From IMG/VR virus record IMGVR_UViG_3300032297_000368, positions 17,470 to 81,469 of that record: a stretch of DNA of 64,000 nucleotides; one strand, written 5' to 3'. This document shows positions 28,810-51,915 of this stretch, piece after piece. The position numbers and the translations under genes were made by a program. Under the pieces are notes generated by a model. That model ran no database searches. It was given only the letters and a program-made list of their open reading frames with translations, and was not told where the DNA came from. The DNA is from a virus. Numbering within the stretch: position 1 is the stretch's first letter; each line of letters opens with the position of its first letter.

Positions 28810-30036
28810 TTAGTATATCTTTACAAATGGTCCGTTAGTGTCTCTAAATTCTTTCTTTGCACCATAGTATAATGTTTTCAACCATTCAGCCATTAATCCT
28901 TTCTTCTCGATTAAAGCCCAAGCATATGCCCATCTCATACATGTCAACTTTGATGATAATCTTCCACCAGCATACTTAGAACCCTCCTCTCGAATAGAAT
29001 AATCTAATACATTAGCAAACGAACCAGTAGAAACTATTTTACCTTTATACACAACTTTCATTTCACCAAAATCTATACTCATACGATTGACTTTAAGTTT
29101 AGATAACTCTTTTTGAAAATCAATCCAATATTTTTTAGTTTCTGTTGTCCATTTTCCTACAGGAGGAATATGAGGGTCTTTACCTGCATTAACTGGTCTA
29201 ATTATTCCGAGTTTATTATAATATTTCGAAAAGAACTCATCAATGGCGTCAGCAGAAGCTTTACCAATTTTAGCACCAGCATCTTTTCCTGTAGGAGTTA
29301 AATCGGTCTGAACACCACCTCTAGGAGTTGACATGTTAAAGTTTCTTGTTTGCCAATTAACAATTGTATCGTTCACTTTAAATTGTCCAGCAATTTCTCC
29401 ATTATCTATCTCTGTTGGAGTTTTGTTATTTGTTCCGAAATTTGCATAACACTTCAAGGGGCCAACATTTTCAAATGTTAACTCTTTCTGTTTGCCTTTA
29501 CCCATATTAGATAATTCTAAATCAGCTTTAGCTTTAGTTTTAGAAATAGCTTTAAGTGATACAGGAACTAAATCTTTAGTTTGTATTAATTCTCTCATGT
29601 ACGCATTTAAAGAATAAAGATTGGCCATTTTATCAGGATTTTTAGTGATTGAATCTAATTTTTTTCTTATTACATTTTCTTTTGTTTTTCTAACCATGTA
29701 AATATCAGCAGGATCCCAATTATCTTTTGTTGAAACGCCACATCTTTTTTTAGCAATATCTTCAATGAATGCCATAAAACCATCTCGTTCATCACGAGAA
29801 TAGGAATATCCTTTATTACTATCGCCTAGATAATTTTTTAGAGCAATACATTGTTTAGTGTATGTAGATAACCATATTTCTCTAAGTTTTACGTCTTTAG
29901 CTAATTGAGGATAAACTTGTACGATCTCAGAAAACAACTGAGATTCTGTAGGTGTTTTAACACTTTCAATCCATAATTTGAAAGCAACTTTAGAACCATT
30001 CTCTTGTTTAGCTGTCTCTATCGCATTGCCGGCCAT
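28810..30036 (-). CDS. Putative PD-(D/E)xK endonuclease (free-standing homing-endonuclease-like)
   Basis: AKQENGS helix, DNWDPADIY...VPVSLK catalytic-like motif; late promoter plus SD-sequestering hairpin upstream. Confidence 0.6.
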   Translation of the reverse strand: MAGNAIETAKQENGSKVAFKLWIESVKTPTESQLFSEIVQVYPQLAKDVKLREIWLSTYTKQCIALKNYLGDSNKGYSYSRDERDGFMAFIEDIAKKRCGVSTKDNWDPADIYMVRKTKENVIRKKLDSITKNPDKMANLYSLNAYMRELIQTKDLVPVSLKAISKTKAKADLELSNMGKGKQKELTFENVGPLKCYANFGTNNKTPTEIDNGEIAGQFKVNDTIVNWQTRNFNMSTPRGGVQTDLTPTGKDAGAKIGKASADAIDEFFSKYYNKLGIIRPVNAGKDPHIPPVGKWTTETKKYWIDFQKELSKLKVNRMSIDFGEMKVVYKGKIVSTGSFANVLDYSIREEGSKYAGGRLSSKLTCMRWAYAWALIEKKGLMAEWLKTLYYGAKKEFRDTNGPFVKIY

Positions 30037-30081: not shown

Positions 30082-31197
30082 CTACCGAATTATGTCAATA
30101 TCTTTTCCGCTAGTCCAAACCTCTTGTTCTGTACGTAAACGACCTTCGGTCTTCAGAGTTTCATATCTGTTAATGGCTTTCTTTCTCCACCACTCAATAA
30201 TGTTACTCAAATGAAACTTTTCATAGTTCTCACCAGCCTCTAGTTTAGTGGCTTTTCCATTGACAAAATCGACCATATTTTTGTAACCATAGTCAGATAT
30301 GAAGTATCGTTTCTGTTCGTTCAGATTCTTGGCCTTCTCGATGGTTTCTTTAAATTTTACACCTTCTGGTGTTCCTTTAAGTGCGATACCAACCATCGAA
30401 ACTATTGCATTTGATATTTTCAATTTACGACTAGAAGCATTTAGTGGTGCCAATGGTTCACCAGTAATATTCTCAACATATTCTTTCAGATCAGTATATG
30501 TTTTACCGTGTAACATAGGAAGAAAATCTGAATCTGTTAGACCTTTGTAACGAATAAAAGGTTTCATGCCATCATATTGTGACACTGTTTTTGTAGAACC
30601 ATATAAAGAAGTGGTTTCAAAAAGACAAGTGTTCATTTTATACTTGGCATTTAACATCTCACGAACTTCATGTGATGTACAGATTGCCGCCATAAGTTTA
30701 CCACCTAGATAATTATAACCAAATGGTTGTGAAGGTACAATAACAAAACCCATAGCAGCACACTCATTGAATCTTTTGGCACCACCCTCAGTTTGTGTAA
30801 ACACTGCTCCAAGCATCTCATTACGTGGCTTACAGTTAATCACAGGTGAACCTAGGCGAATAAAACCACACCATTTACCAGTTGTCTTTTCCATAACAGC
30901 AAGTCTTAGGCAACGACCTGGAATACTTGTCATATTAGAATGACTTGATATTATGTTAAGATATAAGTCCCATTGCGATTGTGACAACTCGACCACCTCA
31001 AACTCCATCGACTCTGGAGAGAGACTAAAATCTGAGTATAGGTCTTCTTCTGGTCCCCCAAAAGGAAGCGCAGGAGGTCTATCGGAGAGACTGGCCAATT
31101 TCTGTTCACGCATGTACTCATCAATACGATTGAACTTGTCAAAGTAGTCACTATAAATGTTAGCACAATGTAATGCTTGTTCTTTTGTTAACTTCAT
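30082..31197 (-). CDS. DUF4338/DruA-like protein, paralog A
   Basis: PGRCLRLAV, VPSQPFGYNYLGGKLMA, ETTSLYG, SQYDG. Confidence 0.7.
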   Translation of the reverse strand: MKLTKEQALHCANIYSDYFDKFNRIDEYMREQKLASLSDRPPALPFGGPEEDLYSDFSLSPESMEFEVVELSQSQWDLYLNIISSHSNMTSIPGRCLRLAVMEKTTGKWCGFIRLGSPVINCKPRNEMLGAVFTQTEGGAKRFNECAAMGFVIVPSQPFGYNYLGGKLMAAICTSHEVREMLNAKYKMNTCLFETTSLYGSTKTVSQYDGMKPFIRYKGLTDSDFLPMLHGKTYTDLKEYVENITGEPLAPLNASSRKLKISNAIVSMVGIALKGTPEGVKFKETIEKAKNLNEQKRYFISDYGYKNMVDFVNGKATKLEAGENYEKFHLSNIIEWWRKKAINRYETLKTEGRLRTEQEVWTSGKDIDIIR

Positions 31198-46563: not shown

Positions 46564-48882
46564 TTATACAGCTATTTCTTGTATGAAACGTGAGACCAGT
46601 ACTCGGTTTACCTGACGTTTTTTGTTATATTTACCAAAAGCACTTTTAAGTTTGCCTGCGGTAACATTACCGTTAATCTCCAACTCTTCGTTATCAATTT
46701 GTAAATTATCGCCACCAGCAATAAAGTAAAATTTACGGTAGCCAAAATTGTGTGATTCTAAGAATTTTTCAGTTTTCAATTCTTGCATTTTTTCTTTAAG
46801 AATCGGTGAATTTCTATATTCAGATTCATAGTGATGACGACCAGGTATTAATGTTTCATCAATCTTATCGATCAAAGTTTTTTTATCATCAAATCTAAAA
46901 TGACGGAACAAAGCATTTCTAGCTGATGAACCTTTCTCAGTGATAAAGAAAGCAAAAGTTTTAGCACCGGTGGTATCTGTTAACCACTGTAAAGCAGCAC
47001 CTGTCATATCGTTATCTTCACGTGATAACAGATAACTTTTTTTAGTTTTATTATCAGTAAGAATGACGTTTTCACGGTTAAGATTATAATAACTTTGAGG
47101 TTTATGTAGTGCTTTAGGATCACTTACATACCGATTAGTAGCATCAGCATCACCGTCTTGAATAAAAACAATATTCACCAAGTCTAAATTATTATTTTGT
47201 TTAAACGAATCTACAATAGGTTTTACCGCAAAAACAGTTTCATTAAATGGTGTTGCACTCAGTGTTTCTGTTGGCGGTAAACCACCATGAGCTCTGTTAT
47301 AATAACTATCAGGATTACTATAATCATAAAGGCTTCTGATATACAATAAATTTTTAACAGCCTTAGTATATTCACTACCGCTCATGCGAGAATTTAAATA
47401 CTCACGTAGGAAAACATCATCTAAGTATAAATCATTCAGATTGTTTTCAAAACATGGTGGTATGCTCTCATCAAAGTCAATAGAGTATTCTAATTTTCTA
47501 ACAACTTGAGCGTCACCAAAACCATAAACAATAAAAGGAATATTTACTTTACGGCAAAACATAGTTAAGATTAAAACCTGTTCGATAGAACCTGCCATAT
47601 TGTTTGACATTGAACCAGATTTATCTAACAGAATAACTAAGCCATGAGATTTACCTTTTGGTGTTTTTGTAAGTTTACGGAAGATAGAATCATCAAGTTT
47701 ATACTTGTAGATTTTACCCATGTCAAGATCACCACTGGTAGATAATTTAGTTTTAGCATAAGATTTTGCCGCTTTACGCATTTCAAATTCTTTTGCCAAT
47801 AGTGAAATGTATCTCTCATTCTTTTTCTTAAACTCATTTAATGAATCATTAGATTCGAGTACCGAAGCACCACGGTGTTCAATGACATAATTGGTAATAC
47901 CTGCATGTACTTTTTCAGCAGGTGTAATAATGTTTTTCAGATTAGGTGTTGGTACATTAATATAAACAAAAGGTTTAGATTCTTTTGATAACAATTCAGT
48001 TTCACGTAAACGGAAACTCTCATCGGTTTCACATGTAGGTTCGAATGAATTATTATCGTAAGATTCTTTATCACGATTTATTTCGGATGATTCTTCACCT
48101 TCCTCATCATCACCTTCACCGTCTTTAGCATTTAAAGGCTTACCATCTTCACCTTCATCACCCTCTTCATCACCATCACCTGTAGTGTCAGCATTAGATT
48201 CTTCACCGTACTCTGATTCGATCTCAGATTCGGAATCATAATCATCATCACCGTCACCTTCACTCAGGTCATAATCTTCTTGCAAATCTTTTAACAATTG
48301 CTGTTCTTGTTTTTCTTGCTGTTCTTGTTTAGAATATGCCCATACTTTATCAGTAACAGCAACAACATCTTCCCAAGTTTCACAAGCAAAAACTTCATCT
48401 ACCAGTTTTTGTTCTTCTGGTGTAAAATCTAAACCAGCAGTGGTGAATAAAGATTTAAAGTGTAAGTTTAAACGGTCGATAAAAAACAATTCACTTACAG
48501 GACGGCCTTTGATACCGAAAAAATCTTCTTGATTGAATTTTTCGTAGGCAGTTTTAAATGATTTTTTAAGACCGGGGTAACGGCGTTTAATTTTCTTTTC
48601 GATACGAGCATCTTCAATAACATTTAAGAAATGCTTGTAACCTTTACCTTTAGTACATACAGCATCATGCCAACCTTGTTGAGGTGTTTCAGTAGCATGG
48701 CCTACCTCATGACCTAACAAAAGATCATAAGTATCACCGCCCATATCTTTCCAGATGGGGCAAACTAATGTACGGTTTTTCAAATCGAAATACGCTGTTT
48801 GAACCTTAGCGTGTTGGACTGTAATATTTTCGGTGGCCATCAGCTTGGCCAATTGGGATTTAGACTCTACGGTAAATGTCAT
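46564..48882 (-). CDS. Metallopeptidase-like + vWA domain protein (CobT-like AAA partner)
   Basis: GHEVGH (HExxH), NVIEDARIE, acidic linker, LDKSGSM (MIDAS), TP, QDGD. Confidence 0.85.
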   Translation of the reverse strand: MTFTVESKSQLAKLMATENITVQHAKVQTAYFDLKNRTLVCPIWKDMGGDTYDLLLGHEVGHATETPQQGWHDAVCTKGKGYKHFLNVIEDARIEKKIKRRYPGLKKSFKTAYEKFNQEDFFGIKGRPVSELFFIDRLNLHFKSLFTTAGLDFTPEEQKLVDEVFACETWEDVVAVTDKVWAYSKQEQQEKQEQQLLKDLQEDYDLSEGDGDDDYDSESEIESEYGEESNADTTGDGDEEGDEGEDGKPLNAKDGEGDDEEGEESSEINRDKESYDNNSFEPTCETDESFRLRETELLSKESKPFVYINVPTPNLKNIITPAEKVHAGITNYVIEHRGASVLESNDSLNEFKKKNERYISLLAKEFEMRKAAKSYAKTKLSTSGDLDMGKIYKYKLDDSIFRKLTKTPKGKSHGLVILLDKSGSMSNNMAGSIEQVLILTMFCRKVNIPFIVYGFGDAQVVRKLEYSIDFDESIPPCFENNLNDLYLDDVFLREYLNSRMSGSEYTKAVKNLLYIRSLYDYSNPDSYYNRAHGGLPPTETLSATPFNETVFAVKPIVDSFKQNNNLDLVNIVFIQDGDADATNRYVSDPKALHKPQSYYNLNRENVILTDNKTKKSYLLSREDNDMTGAALQWLTDTTGAKTFAFFITEKGSSARNALFRHFRFDDKKTLIDKIDETLIPGRHHYESEYRNSPILKEKMQELKTEKFLESHNFGYRKFYFIAGGDNLQIDNEELEINGNVTAGKLKSAFGKYNKKRQVNRVLVSRFIQEIAV

Positions 48883-48898
48883 TTTGATAATCTCTCAT

Positions 48899-49105
48899 TT
48901 ATTCAGATTCTATTATATCATTTTCAAAAGAATAAGTCAAGTATTCCTGATATTCAGGTAACTTTTCAATCTCGGACATTATCTTTTTGATACCAAATTG
49001 ACGTATTGCACATTTGATATCTAAGATTGCATATTGATAACTGTTATCAATATGATATTCATCGTAAATCTGTTGTAATTTTGACATGTTTTCCTCACTG
49101 TTCAT
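48899..49105 (-). CDS. Small early hypothetical protein
   Basis: Downstream of an early promoter; GAGGA SD before the second Met. Confidence 0.55.
   Translation of the reverse strand: MNSEENMSKLQQIYDEYHIDNSYQYAILDIKCAIRQFGIKKIMSEIEKLPEYQEYLTYSFENDIIESE
48912..48940 (-). promoter_or_regulatory. Sigma70 early promoter (inside the 3' end of the small ORF)
   Basis: TTGACT-17-TATAAT with TG. Confidence 0.75.
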
Positions 49106-49111
49106 GTTACC

Positions 49112-49170
49112 ATTATACCAGAACCAGTGAGTAAGTCAATAGAAAAAGTGTTGTAAAAATACAACACTTT
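49112..49170 (-). promoter_or_regulatory. Sigma70 early promoter preceded by the palindrome AAAGTGTTGT-6-ACAACACTTT
   Basis: TTGACT-16-TATAAT (49112-49139); inverted repeat at 49145-49170. Confidence 0.75.
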
Positions 49171-49177
49171 GGGAAGA

Positions 49178-49243
49178 TGGAGCGGTGAGACTGATTCGCA
49201 CAATCGGACTAGGTTGGGCACCCAATCTGTTCTAAACCACCGC
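49178..49243 (-). tRNA. Atypical D-armless tRNA-Gly-like RNA with encoded CCA
   Basis: GCGGTGG TTTAGAAC AGATTGGGTGCCCAACCT AGTCC GATTG TGCGAAT CAGTC TCACCGC T CCA: 7-bp acceptor stem, U73, 5-bp T-stem with a 7-nt loop, GCC/CCC in the middle arm, no D-stem. Confidence 0.75.
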
Positions 49244-49250
49244 ATATTAA

Positions 49251-49288
49251 GCGGTGATTACTACATCTAATCACCGCATATACTTATA
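49251..49288 (-). promoter_or_regulatory. Late-promoter-like TATAAGTA and a 10-bp hairpin upstream of the tRNA-like gene
   Basis: TATAAGTA at 49281-49288; GCGGTGATTA/TAATCACCGC at 49251-49277. Confidence 0.5.
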
Positions 49289-49296
49289 TAGGCGTT

Positions 49297-50574
49297 TTAT
49301 CTGCCAACTTGAGGTAAATATTTCTCCTTACATTCTTCCCATGACAAATAAATTAAATCGTCATAGAAAAGAGTTTCATATGAAACATTATTCTTTTTGA
49401 TTAGTTGTTTGATACGACCTTTAACATGTTTTGTTTTCCACAATTCAGTCAAAGCCTGTTCACTATTATCAAACAGTTTAGTCATATCACCTTTATAATC
49501 GCCACGTAAAAATTCACATGTCTTATCAAATAATGGTGCAAAGTAAATACCTCTGTGGTGTTCTGCCTTAATTAATTCTTTTGGTACTTTTAATTTTGAA
49601 TATGTAAAGTTCAAAGAACGATTCTTGTGGTCACGTTTATATGGTTGACCAGAAGGTTTCTTTGCTGCGTACCATTCAAAGTATTTACGTGTATGATTAA
49701 CTTTCAACCACTCACGTACCTTATATCTTGTATTGCGTTCAGGTTCAAACGATACAGAACCAGAACTGAAACCCATCGGCAACCAATGATCTAGATTATC
49801 ATACTGAGACAAACCACCGGCCTTTGTACGACCATATAAAGATGTTGTAGTGACGCCAACAAGTTTATCTTTATATTGATTTTGCCATGTCTTCTCTACT
49901 GTATCAGATAAACAAAGCAATGCCAATAGTTTACCACCAACATAATTAAATCCTAGCGGTTGTAATGGCACAATAGTAGAACCAATAGCAGTGTGATTAA
50001 TCATGCCGCCTTGTGTTTTTAATTCTCTTTCCCAACCAATAAACTTATCACGAGGTGTTAAGTCTAAGAAATCTGAAGAGATACAAATAACACCGAGATA
50101 TTTCTTAGTTACTTTATCTTGTACAATAAAGTTTAAGTTTCTACCGATGTTAGAGTTGTTCTTCATGGTAGATGAGAATGTACGAATACAATTCCACAAT
50201 TCAGGAAGATTACTATCTTTTACATTTGTATATATCAGTGTCGGTTCAAGATTCAGATAATCTTCTGGTGATGTTGGCATCCAGATATTATCTTTAACAT
50301 GTTGTATCAACTCAGCCTGAGATTCATCTTGCAATACCTTTTTAGGACCTGACCATAGATCAGATACAATCATAGTAGGAAACTTTTCTTGAATCTCACA
50401 CCACTTCTGATATAGAATATACTCACGCACATCCATCTTAGAAATATACGACAAGTCTTCTTCTAAAGAAGTTTTAATATCTTCTTCACTATAATGTACA
50501 TAATTCTCAGGAGGATTTTCTCGTTGCCAATCATTCCACTGAGTTTCAATATCTTTAATTTGCTGTTTGCTCAT
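49297..50574 (-). CDS. DUF4338/DruA-like protein, paralog B
   Basis: IGRNLNFIV, VPLQPLGFNYVGGKLLA, TTTSLYG, SQYDN. Confidence 0.7.
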   Translation of the reverse strand: MSKQQIKDIETQWNDWQRENPPENYVHYSEEDIKTSLEEDLSYISKMDVREYILYQKWCEIQEKFPTMIVSDLWSGPKKVLQDESQAELIQHVKDNIWMPTSPEDYLNLEPTLIYTNVKDSNLPELWNCIRTFSSTMKNNSNIGRNLNFIVQDKVTKKYLGVICISSDFLDLTPRDKFIGWERELKTQGGMINHTAIGSTIVPLQPLGFNYVGGKLLALLCLSDTVEKTWQNQYKDKLVGVTTTSLYGRTKAGGLSQYDNLDHWLPMGFSSGSVSFEPERNTRYKVREWLKVNHTRKYFEWYAAKKPSGQPYKRDHKNRSLNFTYSKLKVPKELIKAEHHRGIYFAPLFDKTCEFLRGDYKGDMTKLFDNSEQALTELWKTKHVKGRIKQLIKKNNVSYETLFYDDLIYLSWEECKEKYLPQVGR

Positions 50575-51142
50575 TTAATCTTTTCTGTTTCTTCACATTG
50601 CGTTTAAGAGTTTTAATCAGTTTAGTTTGTCTCTGTCTTGCCATTTTCATTGCAAGTGGACCTACATGATCTTCTAATAAAACACCATTCATATGATCTA
50701 GTTCATGCATGAAGCATCGTGCAGTTATACCGGTCAATGACATCTTCTGTACTTGGCCATTAACATCAGTAAATTCAACATCGATAGTTGATGATCGTTT
50801 CACAGGAACAAAAAGACCTGGATAAGATAAACAACCTTCACGACTCTTATCAGTTTCATCAGACTCATCAATAACTTTAGGATTAATACACACTATGTTG
50901 AAGTCTTCGTAACCAATAACAAATACTCTTTCGGGAATACCACATTGATTTGCCGATAGACCAATACCATCATATAACTTACGTGTCATCTCTAAACGTT
51001 TAGCTAACTCATTCATTTTAGGGTTAGGCAAAGGCGAATCATATAGAGGCATTTTTTGCCTTAACATATGAAACTCGTCACCATAAACAGGTAAAGGTGT
51101 TATGTTTGGTTCTGTATTGATCGTTAAAATTTCACTCATCAT
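50555..51142 (-). CDS. def: Peptide deformylase
   Basis: GIGLSANQCG, EGCLS, HELDH. Confidence 0.95.
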   Translation of the reverse strand: MMSEILTINTEPNITPLPVYGDEFHMLRQKMPLYDSPLPNPKMNELAKRLEMTRKLYDGIGLSANQCGIPERVFVIGYEDFNIVCINPKVIDESDETDKSREGCLSYPGLFVPVKRSSTIDVEFTDVNGQVQKMSLTGITARCFMHELDHMNGVLLEDHVGPLAMKMARQRQTKLIKTLKRNVKKQKRLNEQTAN

Positions 51143-51915
51143 TCTATCCTTGGTTTATTATATAATGTTTCCAATATATGTTGTACTGGCCAATCTTCTC
51201 TACTATCGCATAATAATACATTAATGTCAAGCATTTCTCGCAAACACATCCGAACTGGAAAAGGAACACTTAAAGAATGCCTAGCAACATTGATAAAGGT
51301 TATCATTTTAGTTTGCATTTTCTGTACGTGCTTCTTCTTACACATGTAAGCCTTATTGTCACCTATAGCATACACTCGCCAGTTTTCATAATTGTATTTC
51401 GCCAGACTATATTCAATCGCAGCACTATTAACACCTGGATATTCATAATCATTGAAATCATCCAAGACAATAGTACCCTCATCATGCATGTGTTGAGTAA
51501 ATACTGTTAGATCATTCATCACCGCAGAATGCTCATGACAACCATCGATATGTAATAGTCTTAAAGGTTTATCAAAAAATATTATTTCATCATCTAATTT
51601 TGTGGTATCTTGTAATCTCCATACCAACAAGTTTTCTTCACCAGAAAATTTACGTATATTTCTTTCAGCCTCTATTCTAGATATTTCACTAAAGATATCA
51701 TACAGATATAATCTATCTGTTTTCTTTTTAAAATTAGATAATGCTATGGCACTTTTACCATAAGCTACACCAATTTCACAAAGATCACCTGGAATATTTT
51801 GTTGTATGTCATTAAGTAAGCCGTATAACATAACAATGTCAATTGGATAAAACCAACCAGGAACTTCTTTGTCGATCACTTCTTTAAAGTGAGTTAAGTA
51901 TTCTTTAAAATTCAT
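51139..51915 (-). CDS. Class I SAM-dependent methyltransferase (Methyltransf_24-like)
   Basis: GDLCEIGVAYGKS, LHIDGCH, VLDDF...PGV. Confidence 0.85.
   Translation of the reverse strand: MNFKEYLTHFKEVIDKEVPGWFYPIDIVMLYGLLNDIQQNIPGDLCEIGVAYGKSAIALSNFKKKTDRLYLYDIFSEISRIEAERNIRKFSGEENLLVWRLQDTTKLDDEIIFFDKPLRLLHIDGCHEHSAVMNDLTVFTQHMHDEGTIVLDDFNDYEYPGVNSAAIEYSLAKYNYENWRVYAIGDNKAYMCKKKHVQKMQTKMITFINVARHSLSVPFPVRMCLREMLDINVLLCDSREDWPVQHILETLYNKPRIE

Follow-up and report, generated by a model that had tools for sequence, protein, structure and literature searches.

The window analysed here is a 64,000-nucleotide (nt) stretch of an 81-kb IMG/VR virus record (IMGVR_UViG_3300032297_000368, about 49% complete) from a T4-like phage, and the public runs in which its sequence recurs come from fresh water. 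At 49178–49243, on the minus strand, it carries a 66-nt tRNA-Gly-derived RNA whose start lies 53 nt past the stop codon of a gene on the same strand for a 425-residue DUF4338/DruA protein (49297–50574, Pfam PF14236), referred to below as paralog 1. A second DUF4338/DruA-like gene, paralog 2 (371 residues, phrog_19197), is found at 30082–31197 on the minus strand, coupled to the gp41 helicase gene. An earlier note on this DNA had taken the RNA for a glycine donor and paralog 1 for a transferase that modifies phage DNA. Its coordinates, the 53-nt spacing, the 66-nt length, the 3′ CCA and the common strand were confirmed from the sequence.

Along the minus strand, paralog 1 and the RNA are preceded by genes for a gp47-like phosphoesterase, a gp46-like SMC ATPase, a Methyltransf_24 protein and a peptide deformylase. 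They are followed by a terminator-like hairpin, a sigma-70 promoter, a 68-codon open reading frame (ORF), a gene for a 772-residue peptidase (phrog_459) and one for a CobS-like AAA ATPase. The protein encoded by paralog 1 is 60% identical to its counterpart in Pelagibacter phage Mosig and 56% identical to that of HTVC008M.

The RNA was delineated by its sequence, its fold and a covariance model. It starts with the 5′ strand of an acceptor stem (49243–49237) and ends with the 3′ strand (49188–49182), U73 (49181) and an encoded CCA (49180–49178). The acceptor stem consists of seven base pairs (bp), G1–C72, C2–G71, G3–C70, G4–C69, U5–A68, G6–C67 and G7·U66; the 7-bp length, the first three pairs and U73 had been described in the earlier note, and sequence and fold agree with it. 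The same is true of the 5-bp stem and the UGCGAAU loop of the T-like arm (49205–49189). The middle, anticodon-like arm (49227–49207) has 7–8 bp and a loop that the minimum-energy fold shrinks to 5 nt. As had been claimed, this loop contains a triplet with CC, but it reads U-G-CCC-A-A, with G rather than U at position 33. The 8-nt linker that was thought to replace the D-arm is really a 3-bp mini-hairpin, GUU-UAG-AAC (about 49237–49229), which is conserved and covaries in relatives.

As a single sequence the RNA folds with a z-score of −2.3, and 7 of 200 shuffles fold equally well. The covariance model, R1, gave the RNA 49.6 bits (E = 6e-11), the window sequence being among the 31 used to build it. 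ARAGORN called no tRNA gene in the window, and Rfam returned no family, including tRNA, at E ≤ 10 for the RNA region.

Relatives and ancestry of the RNA

Relatives of the RNA were found by collecting relatives of the protein, reading the sequence downstream of their genes and then running two pattern scans. In all, over 70 IMG/VR contigs yielded more than 40 different sequences, comprising at least about 30 distinct sequences of subtype A and at least 13 of subtype B, the type present in the window; coming from pattern scans, these counts are lower bounds. Subtype A (63–68 nt) opens with GCGGnnn, a GUC-YGA-GAC mini-hairpin and AG. Its middle stem of 6–7 bp is capped by CCCC, CCCA or UCCCC, and is followed by a 5-bp stem with the loop UUUAAYU and then by nnnCCGC-U-CCA. 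Subtype B (66–70 nt) has the mini-hairpin GUU-(n)UAG-AAC, the T-loop UGCGAAU and the middle loop U-G-NCC-A-A, in which the triplet is UCC in most sequences and CCC in the window. The contigs L086, L158, L173, L222 and L252 carry tandem pairs, either A with B or B with B, spaced 2–5 nt apart.

The structure of the RNA is under selection. In an alignment of 48 distinct sequences fitted to R1, which somewhat favors the structure, standard pairs occupied 90.6% of the pair cells compared with 41–46% when the partners were slid, both sides had changed in 16 of 21 pairs, and the covariation score was 0.568 against at most 0.12 in controls (0 of 500 shuffles reached it). Compensatory changes are also plain in the raw sequences. 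They are present in every helix, including the mini-hairpin, in which GUC/GAC alternates with GUU/AAC (pairs G–C/U–A and C–G/U–A). Folding and covariance modelling, suggested in the earlier note, thus revealed a family with strong covariation, and the covariation rules out a decaying pseudogene. G1–C72, C2–G71 and G3–C70 are unchanged in all 48 sequences; G53–C61, U73 and CCA are likewise invariant across the family, and the middle loop always contains CC. The RNA is very probably a real, functional molecule with a role other than decoding.

Within the scans made, the RNA was found only in phage contigs. Among 185,579 bacterial and archaeal genomes, exact patterns, which divergent cellular copies could escape, gave no hit for subtype A and 47 for subtype B, none of which was upheld by the covariance model. 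When the region and both subtypes were compared with 50,697 phage records by megablast and blastn, there was no match. A search of the literature turned up no paper about a phage mini-tRNA-Gly and none about phage DUF4338.

The origin of the family was traced with R1. Applied to 51 canonical tRNAs called by ARAGORN in L186, L204, L208 and L219, the model detected tRNA-Gly alone, at 27–32 bits. Moreover, in L204, L208, L219 and L231 a subtype B gene lies 6 nt past a canonical tRNA-Gly (UCC or GCC), and the two share one sigma-70 promoter. The selectivity of R1 and the position behind tRNA-Gly indicate that the family descends from tRNA-Gly, and on these sequence comparisons we regard the ancestry as well established. 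Bacterial glycine identity is set by U73, G1–C72, C2–G71, C35 and C36 (PMC9976931, PMC7826273). The identity elements for glycyl-tRNA synthetase (GlyRS) that the earlier note had listed are present and invariant in the family, as U73, G1–C72, C2–G71, G3–C70 and the loop CC.

Two of the tRNA-rich phages have a long conserved stretch after subtype B and before the next tRNA-Met (L219:5448–6160 and L231:2670–3380). At E ≤ 0.01, Rfam identified only the flanking tRNAs there, and in the tRNA-Gly/subtype B region of L219 it found no family besides canonical tRNA. A further contig contains a full-length, 75-nt tRNA-Gly(UCC)-like gene (L321:227–301, equivalent to G019 49226–49300) located 4 nt past a tRNA-Gly(GCC); it was found by the covariance model and was not called by ARAGORN.

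Features of a decoding tRNA have been lost from the family. The D-arm with G18/G19 is missing and a 3-bp hairpin with a 3-nt loop stands in its place, U33 is gone, and the T-loop departs from U54-U55-C56-R57-A58, reading UGCGAAU (G55) in subtype B and UUUAACU (U56) in subtype A. The middle loops of subtype A have 4–5 nt. Judged by the mini-hairpin, G33 and the altered T-loop, the RNA cannot decode. It is also retained in a contig nearly free of tRNAs, with one tRNA-Thr in 81 kb. That it is nevertheless a working, if odd, decoding tRNA-Gly is highly improbable. Such a role could draw on the glycine identity elements and on the NCC triplet of subtype B (CCC in the window, UCC in most), whose loop is able to open to 7 nt. 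It would have to do so with G in place of a near-universal U33, with neither D-arm nor elbow and, in subtype A, with a loop of 4–5 nt, and both ARAGORN and the Rfam tRNA model reject the RNA. For tRNAs without a D-arm, function is known only in the company of specialised mitochondrial factors (PMC7609411, PMC6158502). The mitochondrial tRNAs of this kind in nematodes and mites resemble the phage RNAs in having a short element for the D-arm and in retaining the acceptor and T arms. They decode with co-evolved factors, whereas the phage RNAs have no proper anticodon loop and belong to bacterial viruses.

A different comparison is offered by the non-proteinogenic (NP) tRNAGly species of staphylococci, in which G18/G19 and U55/C56 are absent and binding to EF-Tu is weak (PMC4574755); the earlier note had described these losses, as GUGC and the D-loop GG, correctly. 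In Staphylococcus aureus, NP1–NP3 keep GlyRS identity and feed the GNAT-like transferases FmhB, FemA and FemB off the ribosome (PMC4574755, PMC7826273). Subtype B shares the kept identity and the losses, having G55. The staphylococcal species are full-length cloverleafs of a cellular lineage, with a peptidoglycan precursor as acceptor, whereas the phage RNAs have 63–70 nt, no D-arm, and either G33 or a 4–5-nt loop. No Fem-family gene was seen near the RNA. The NP tRNAGly lineage is limited to staphylococci (PMC7826273), and the likeness is one of shared features, not of common descent.

Flanking elements and transcription

A promoter-like box, CCTATATAA(G)TA, is located upstream of the RNA at 49281–49292 on the minus strand. 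A comparison of the upstream sequences of L189, L191, L233, L241 and G016 shows that relatives have kept it immediately upstream of their subtype B genes. The CCTATATAA box serves as a sigma-70 −10 element in some relatives, including L189, where the promoter reads TTGACT-17-TATAAT and the box provides its −10. In the window it is near the T4 late consensus, and a simple promoter scan at the box found no full sigma-70 site. From these sequences we infer a promoter role for the box.

Between the box and the RNA, at 49251–49277 (minus strand), a 10-bp hairpin repeats the acceptor-stem words GCGGUGA ... UCACCGC. It belongs to a 34-nt duplication (49238–49271) between 10-nt direct repeats (TATGCGGTG-). 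The 34-nt stretch is skipped (joint 49237→49272) in contigs of two public runs, which marks the hairpin as a duplication of particular strains rather than something conserved; L241 and L191 are examples of relatives without it. Downstream, 7 nt past the CCA, lies an intrinsic-terminator-like hairpin (49145–49170, minus strand) of 11 bp with a T run, and similar hairpins follow the RNA in relatives. It is followed by a strong sigma-70-like promoter (49112–49139, minus strand; TTGACT-16-TATAAT, 11/12, with TG), which is predicted to drive the next gene. Since that gene has its own strong promoter, the RNA appears to be a unit of its own and not a leader. Three runs were compared with the window, all as assembled contigs. 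In one of them, which has a metagenomic source and the label RNA-Seq but whose RNA status is a guess, a contig spans the RNA and may be DNA. The 68-codon ORF between the RNA and the peptidase gene (48899–49105, minus strand) has a near-consensus promoter of its own and belongs to no Pfam or PHROG family.

RNase P and RNase Z act on tRNA-like structures, which can also mark where a transcript ends. The RNA might act in cis as such a processing or stability element, or be a slowly decaying relic of a tRNA cluster, with no function in trans; its place in a tRNA-gene slot and the dispensable nature of the duplication upstream would be in keeping with this. Nevertheless, the RNA has its own promoter and terminator in relatives, two subtypes are kept in tandem, and compensation in every helix and invariant identity nucleotides persist across phages whose proteins are only about 50–70% identical. 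Moreover, a processing signal needs no U73, no encoded CCA and no loop CC. A role in cis, or the state of a relic, is therefore quite unlikely.

In relatives without the mini-tRNA, a different short element is conserved at the corresponding place (L002:5125–5150, L001:5688–5712 and downstream of DUF4338 in L017–L025). It reads roughly GCUGUGCGA..UGACGCA(C)CAGC, often followed by AUGCAAAAA, and is located just before the peptidase promoter.

The DUF4338 protein and its linkage to the RNA

The stop codon of a DUF4338 gene lies 24–136 nt upstream of the RNA, on the same strand, in 63 of the 71 listed instances. Of the remaining eight, two have a further gene in between (549 and 766 nt), five are too near the end of a contig for a judgement, and the last is L081, which is taken up below. 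RNA and gene also occur together at a distance: a DruA gene and subtype B are 12.7 kb apart in one contig (G001), a subtype B-like RNA lies 7.5 kb from a DUF4338 gene in another (G016), and a subtype A-like RNA with a partial D-arm lies 46 kb from one in a third (G017). HTVC008M has two DruA paralogs, and the only tRNA in its 147 kb is an odd tRNA-Gly, whose anticodon, ACC, is unusual and whose T-loop, AGCGUUA, is non-canonical, 3.9 kb downstream of the DUF4338 gene (L002:8998–9071, equivalent to HTVC008M 91140–91213).

All 8 RNA-positive contigs of sufficient length contained paralog 2. That paralog 2 and the RNA are always together was considered and rejected: G018 and G019 have two paralogs without a mini-RNA, and G017 has the RNA relative with no paralog 2 in 60 kb. 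The link between the two is suggestive only. Directly downstream of paralog 2 is an ORF of 408 codons (28810–30036, minus strand) with no Pfam family.

On the other side of paralog 1, the peptide deformylase gene (50555–51142, minus strand) overlaps the DUF4338 start with its 3′ end by 20 nt, and the pair adjoin in relatives too. A gene for a Methyltransf_24 (TylF-like) methyltransferase (51139–51915, minus strand) lies between gp46 and the deformylase; in relatives, namely Mosig and G001, 2OG-Fe(II) oxygenases occupy its position.

Against PF14236, paralog 1 scored 72.1 bits (cut-off 27) and paralog 2 scored 40.2 bits; the two are 36% identical over the GNAT core. An AlphaFold2 model of paralog 1 built from 22 homologues had a score of 89 in pLDDT (the predicted local distance difference test). 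It consists of a GNAT core (residues about 105–360) with a helical insertion between the last strands, flanked by N- and C-terminal helical parts. All of the top Foldseek and VIA-align matches are GNATs, aligned over model residues of about 105–370, so that the modelled DUF4338 protein has a GNAT fold. A DUF4338 profile gave no match to PDB sequences. From the order of secondary structures an N-terminal winged helix had been guessed; residues 1–105 folded alone reached pLDDT 78 and a best Z of 3.4 against PDB representatives, so that no fold could be assigned and the guess found no support.

Among 48,161 representative chains, the best structural match was phage Mu Mom (8bv8_B; Z 9.7, root-mean-square deviation 4.0, 172 residues aligned). 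Foldseek matched the model to Mom with a probability of 0.96–0.99 and weak E-values. The next GNATs, of the ordinary acetyl-CoA type, had Z of 9.0–8.5 with about 145 residues aligned. Judging from the longer alignment with Mom, the two may have the helical insertion between the last strands in common, which in the Mom family is HTH-like. Weaker matches included FemA (Z 7.6) and a GNAT toxin chain, 7byy (Z 7.8). The motifs VPxxPxGxNYxGGKL, TTSLYG and SQY, quoted in the earlier note as part of a Mom/GNAT-like core, are invariant or near-invariant columns in the family alignments; of that core, the GNAT fold and Mom as the top PDB match were borne out.

In the reaction catalysed by Mom, N6 of adenine in double-stranded DNA receives glycine from Gly-tRNAGly (PMC13219725; preprint 10.1101/2023.03.24.534169), so that the donor named in the earlier note was correct. 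It accepts all three E. coli tRNAGly isoacceptors and not Gly-tRNAAla, the tRNAGly body being selected (PMC13219725). Mu Mom (PF25680; PDB 8bv8) resembles paralog 1 in being a phage-encoded GNAT and, it seems, in its extra helical insertion, and the RNA here bears the acceptor marks of tRNAGly. In contrast, the window protein, with 425 residues, has extra N- and C-terminal parts, and Mom relies on host tRNAs, with no dedicated RNA. The cyanophage ortholog of paralog 2 is labelled ‘methylcarbamoylase mom’ by its depositor, whereas Pfam gives only DruA.

The DUF4338 family comprises 1,733 clusters at 50% identity. DUF4338 has been called a GNAT domain and reported fused to DndF and in Druantia contexts (PMC10853773). 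The metagenomic proteins P0138, P0156, P0164, P0176 and P0268 combine a DruA-family domain with UDG-superfamily, ParB_N, DUF3102 or GIY-YIG/NUMOD3 domains, and such fusions point to DNA. The window protein belongs to the same Pfam family as the DruA of type I Druantia and the DndF-fused GNAT. It differs from the former in its setting, a lytic T4-like phage in which the gene lies between recombination genes and the peptidase/CobS pair, with no Druantia partners. No large DruE-like ORF was found between 46 and 54 kb in the window, where the neighbours are T4-like genes and not DruB–DruE. No tRNA-like RNA has been reported with DruA.

Possible roles of the RNA

From the features kept and lost, we infer how the RNA may be expressed, charged, withheld from EF-Tu and used. 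It would be transcribed as a small gene of its own, between the promoter-like box and the terminator, and RNase P would cut its 5′ end. Host GlyRS would charge it by way of U73, G1–C72 and C2–G71 (with G3–C70) and the CC of the middle loop. Because the D-arm, the elbow, the U33 turn and U55/C56 are missing, the RNA would stay off EF-Tu and the ribosome. Once glycylated, it would supply an aminoacyl-tRNA-dependent transferase with activated glycine as a private store. The likeliest consumer would be the adjacent DUF4338/DruA GNAT, perhaps together with the paralog in the replication module, and the target, by analogy with Mu Mom, would be phage DNA.

A private glycyl donor is the best reading of the RNA, with a probability of about 40%. 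A glycine carrier working off the ribosome is also the most economical account of which features were kept and which were lost. That the RNA becomes glycylated is rather probable. Its use as the donor for the DUF4338 protein is quite possible, though we stop short of calling it probable, and the assignment of DNA as the target is tentative. The DruA GNAT as consumer and DNA as target are both plausible on the basis of linkage and fold analogy. The fullest version of the idea, in which one or both of mini-tRNA-Gly A and B, charged by host GlyRS, are donors for one or two DruA GNATs, the one beside the RNA genes and the one in the replisome module, that glycylate new phage DNA as a self-contained hypermodification system, is doubtful.

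Several observations weigh against a private donor for DUF4338 proteins. All of the adjacent loci are syntenic, and the gap between the DUF4338 and peptidase genes is a tRNA-gene slot; in relatives it holds ordinary tRNA genes (tRNA-Ser in L032, tRNA-Ala in L038), so the adjacency can be a matter of synteny. In tRNA-rich phages subtype B lies within the tRNA cluster, which weakens the evidence from adjacency, and in L081 the RNA is kept with no DUF4338 gene within 4.3 kb. A DruA gene occurs without a mini-RNA in Mosig, in the complete 33-kb genomes G022 and G023 and in the contigs G015, G018 and G020; in 25 Synechococcus phage records with a DruA-like gene, blastn, the one method tried, gave no RNA match. 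The co-occurrence that the earlier note proposed to look for is thus seen in the 63 adjacent instances and the three contigs with a distant pair, and is qualified by synteny, by L081 and by the many DUF4338 phages without the RNA.

Other points concern the enzyme and the charging step. In the model comparison, Mom leads the other GNATs only narrowly (Z 9.7, with 9.0 for the next). DUF4338 profiles compared by hhalign with Mu Mom alone and with a 19-sequence Mom profile gave probabilities of at most 1.2%, and the Pfam Mom family (PF25680) had no hit even at E ≤ 10; sequence homology to Mom, as part of the core proposed in the earlier note, was accordingly not found in these searches. The invariant QPxGxNYxGGK segment is located where GNATs bind the pyrophosphate of coenzyme A (CoA), and the donor may be an acyl-CoA. 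Charging of a D-arm-less RNA by an α2β2 GlyRS is a prediction only, and the 4–5-nt loops of subtype A may present C35/C36 improperly. The one certain metatranscriptome run, seen as an assembled contig, covers 48772–49090 and not the RNA.

The retention of the RNA in L081, and its position in tRNA clusters far from DUF4338 and directly behind canonical tRNA-Gly, could be understood if it were a tRNA-Gly mimic, charged or not. It would act as a decoy or sponge for a host factor that reads the acceptor end, and the DUF4338 gene would be a mere neighbour. Suggested targets are a TacT-type toxin that acetylates Gly-tRNAGly, a tRNA-Gly nuclease, GlyRS or a tRNA-sensing regulator, with translation protected or the host rewired as the outcome. 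The invariant parts are indeed acceptor-end marks, decoding parts have been lost, and U73 with G71 is the combination read by TacT-type GNAT toxins (PMC9976931). Strong promoters of its own in relatives suggest a high copy number. TacT and AtaT toxins are, like the DUF4338 protein, GNAT enzymes, they read the acceptor end of tRNAGly, and 7byy is among the structural matches. In their case, however, the charged tRNA is the target and not the donor, and they belong to toxin–antitoxin modules; no antitoxin gene was seen here. A decoy for an anticodon nuclease should keep the native anticodon loop, whereas subtype A loops have 4–5 nt. The likely hosts are not known to have a defence aimed at tRNA-Gly, and the tight DruA linkage and the tandem arrangement of two subtypes are left unexplained. 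A decoy is unlikely.

The RNA might instead carry glycine for another reaction. The acceptor could be a protein N-terminus, modified by an L/F-transferase-like or N-terminal acyltransferase after deformylation, or a lipid or cell-wall precursor, or the consumer could be an enzyme other than DUF4338. In the window, in Mosig and in G001 the genes for the deformylase and the DUF4338 protein overlap or abut; the corresponding ORF in HTVC008M is unannotated. Known aminoacyl-tRNA-dependent enzymes of the GNAT fold act on peptides, proteins and lipids (PMC13219725), and FemA is among the structural matches. Fusions of DUF4338 to UDG and ParB_N and its DndF and Druantia contexts (PMC10853773) point instead to nucleic acid, paralog 2 is in the replication module, and a DNA enzyme, Mom, tops the structural matches. 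Another acceptor or another consumer is thus not likely either.

If the RNA does serve as a private glycyl donor, this phage would be the first virus known with its own non-translational aminoacyl carrier. DNA modification that depends on a tRNA would also have a second, independent example besides Mu Mom, the donor of which was identified only in 2023–2026. A testable function would follow for DUF4338/DruA, a family of more than 1,700 clusters at 50% identity that is found in Druantia and Dnd defence, and under the hypermodification reading the DruA domain of Druantia would gain a biochemical function for the first time. Even without a donor role, the RNA family is new and was overlooked by standard tRNA and Rfam tools. 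Phages maintain these 63–70-nt tRNA derivatives under strong structural selection, which is of relevance to tRNA mimicry, to minimal GlyRS substrates and to the annotation of phage tRNA regions.

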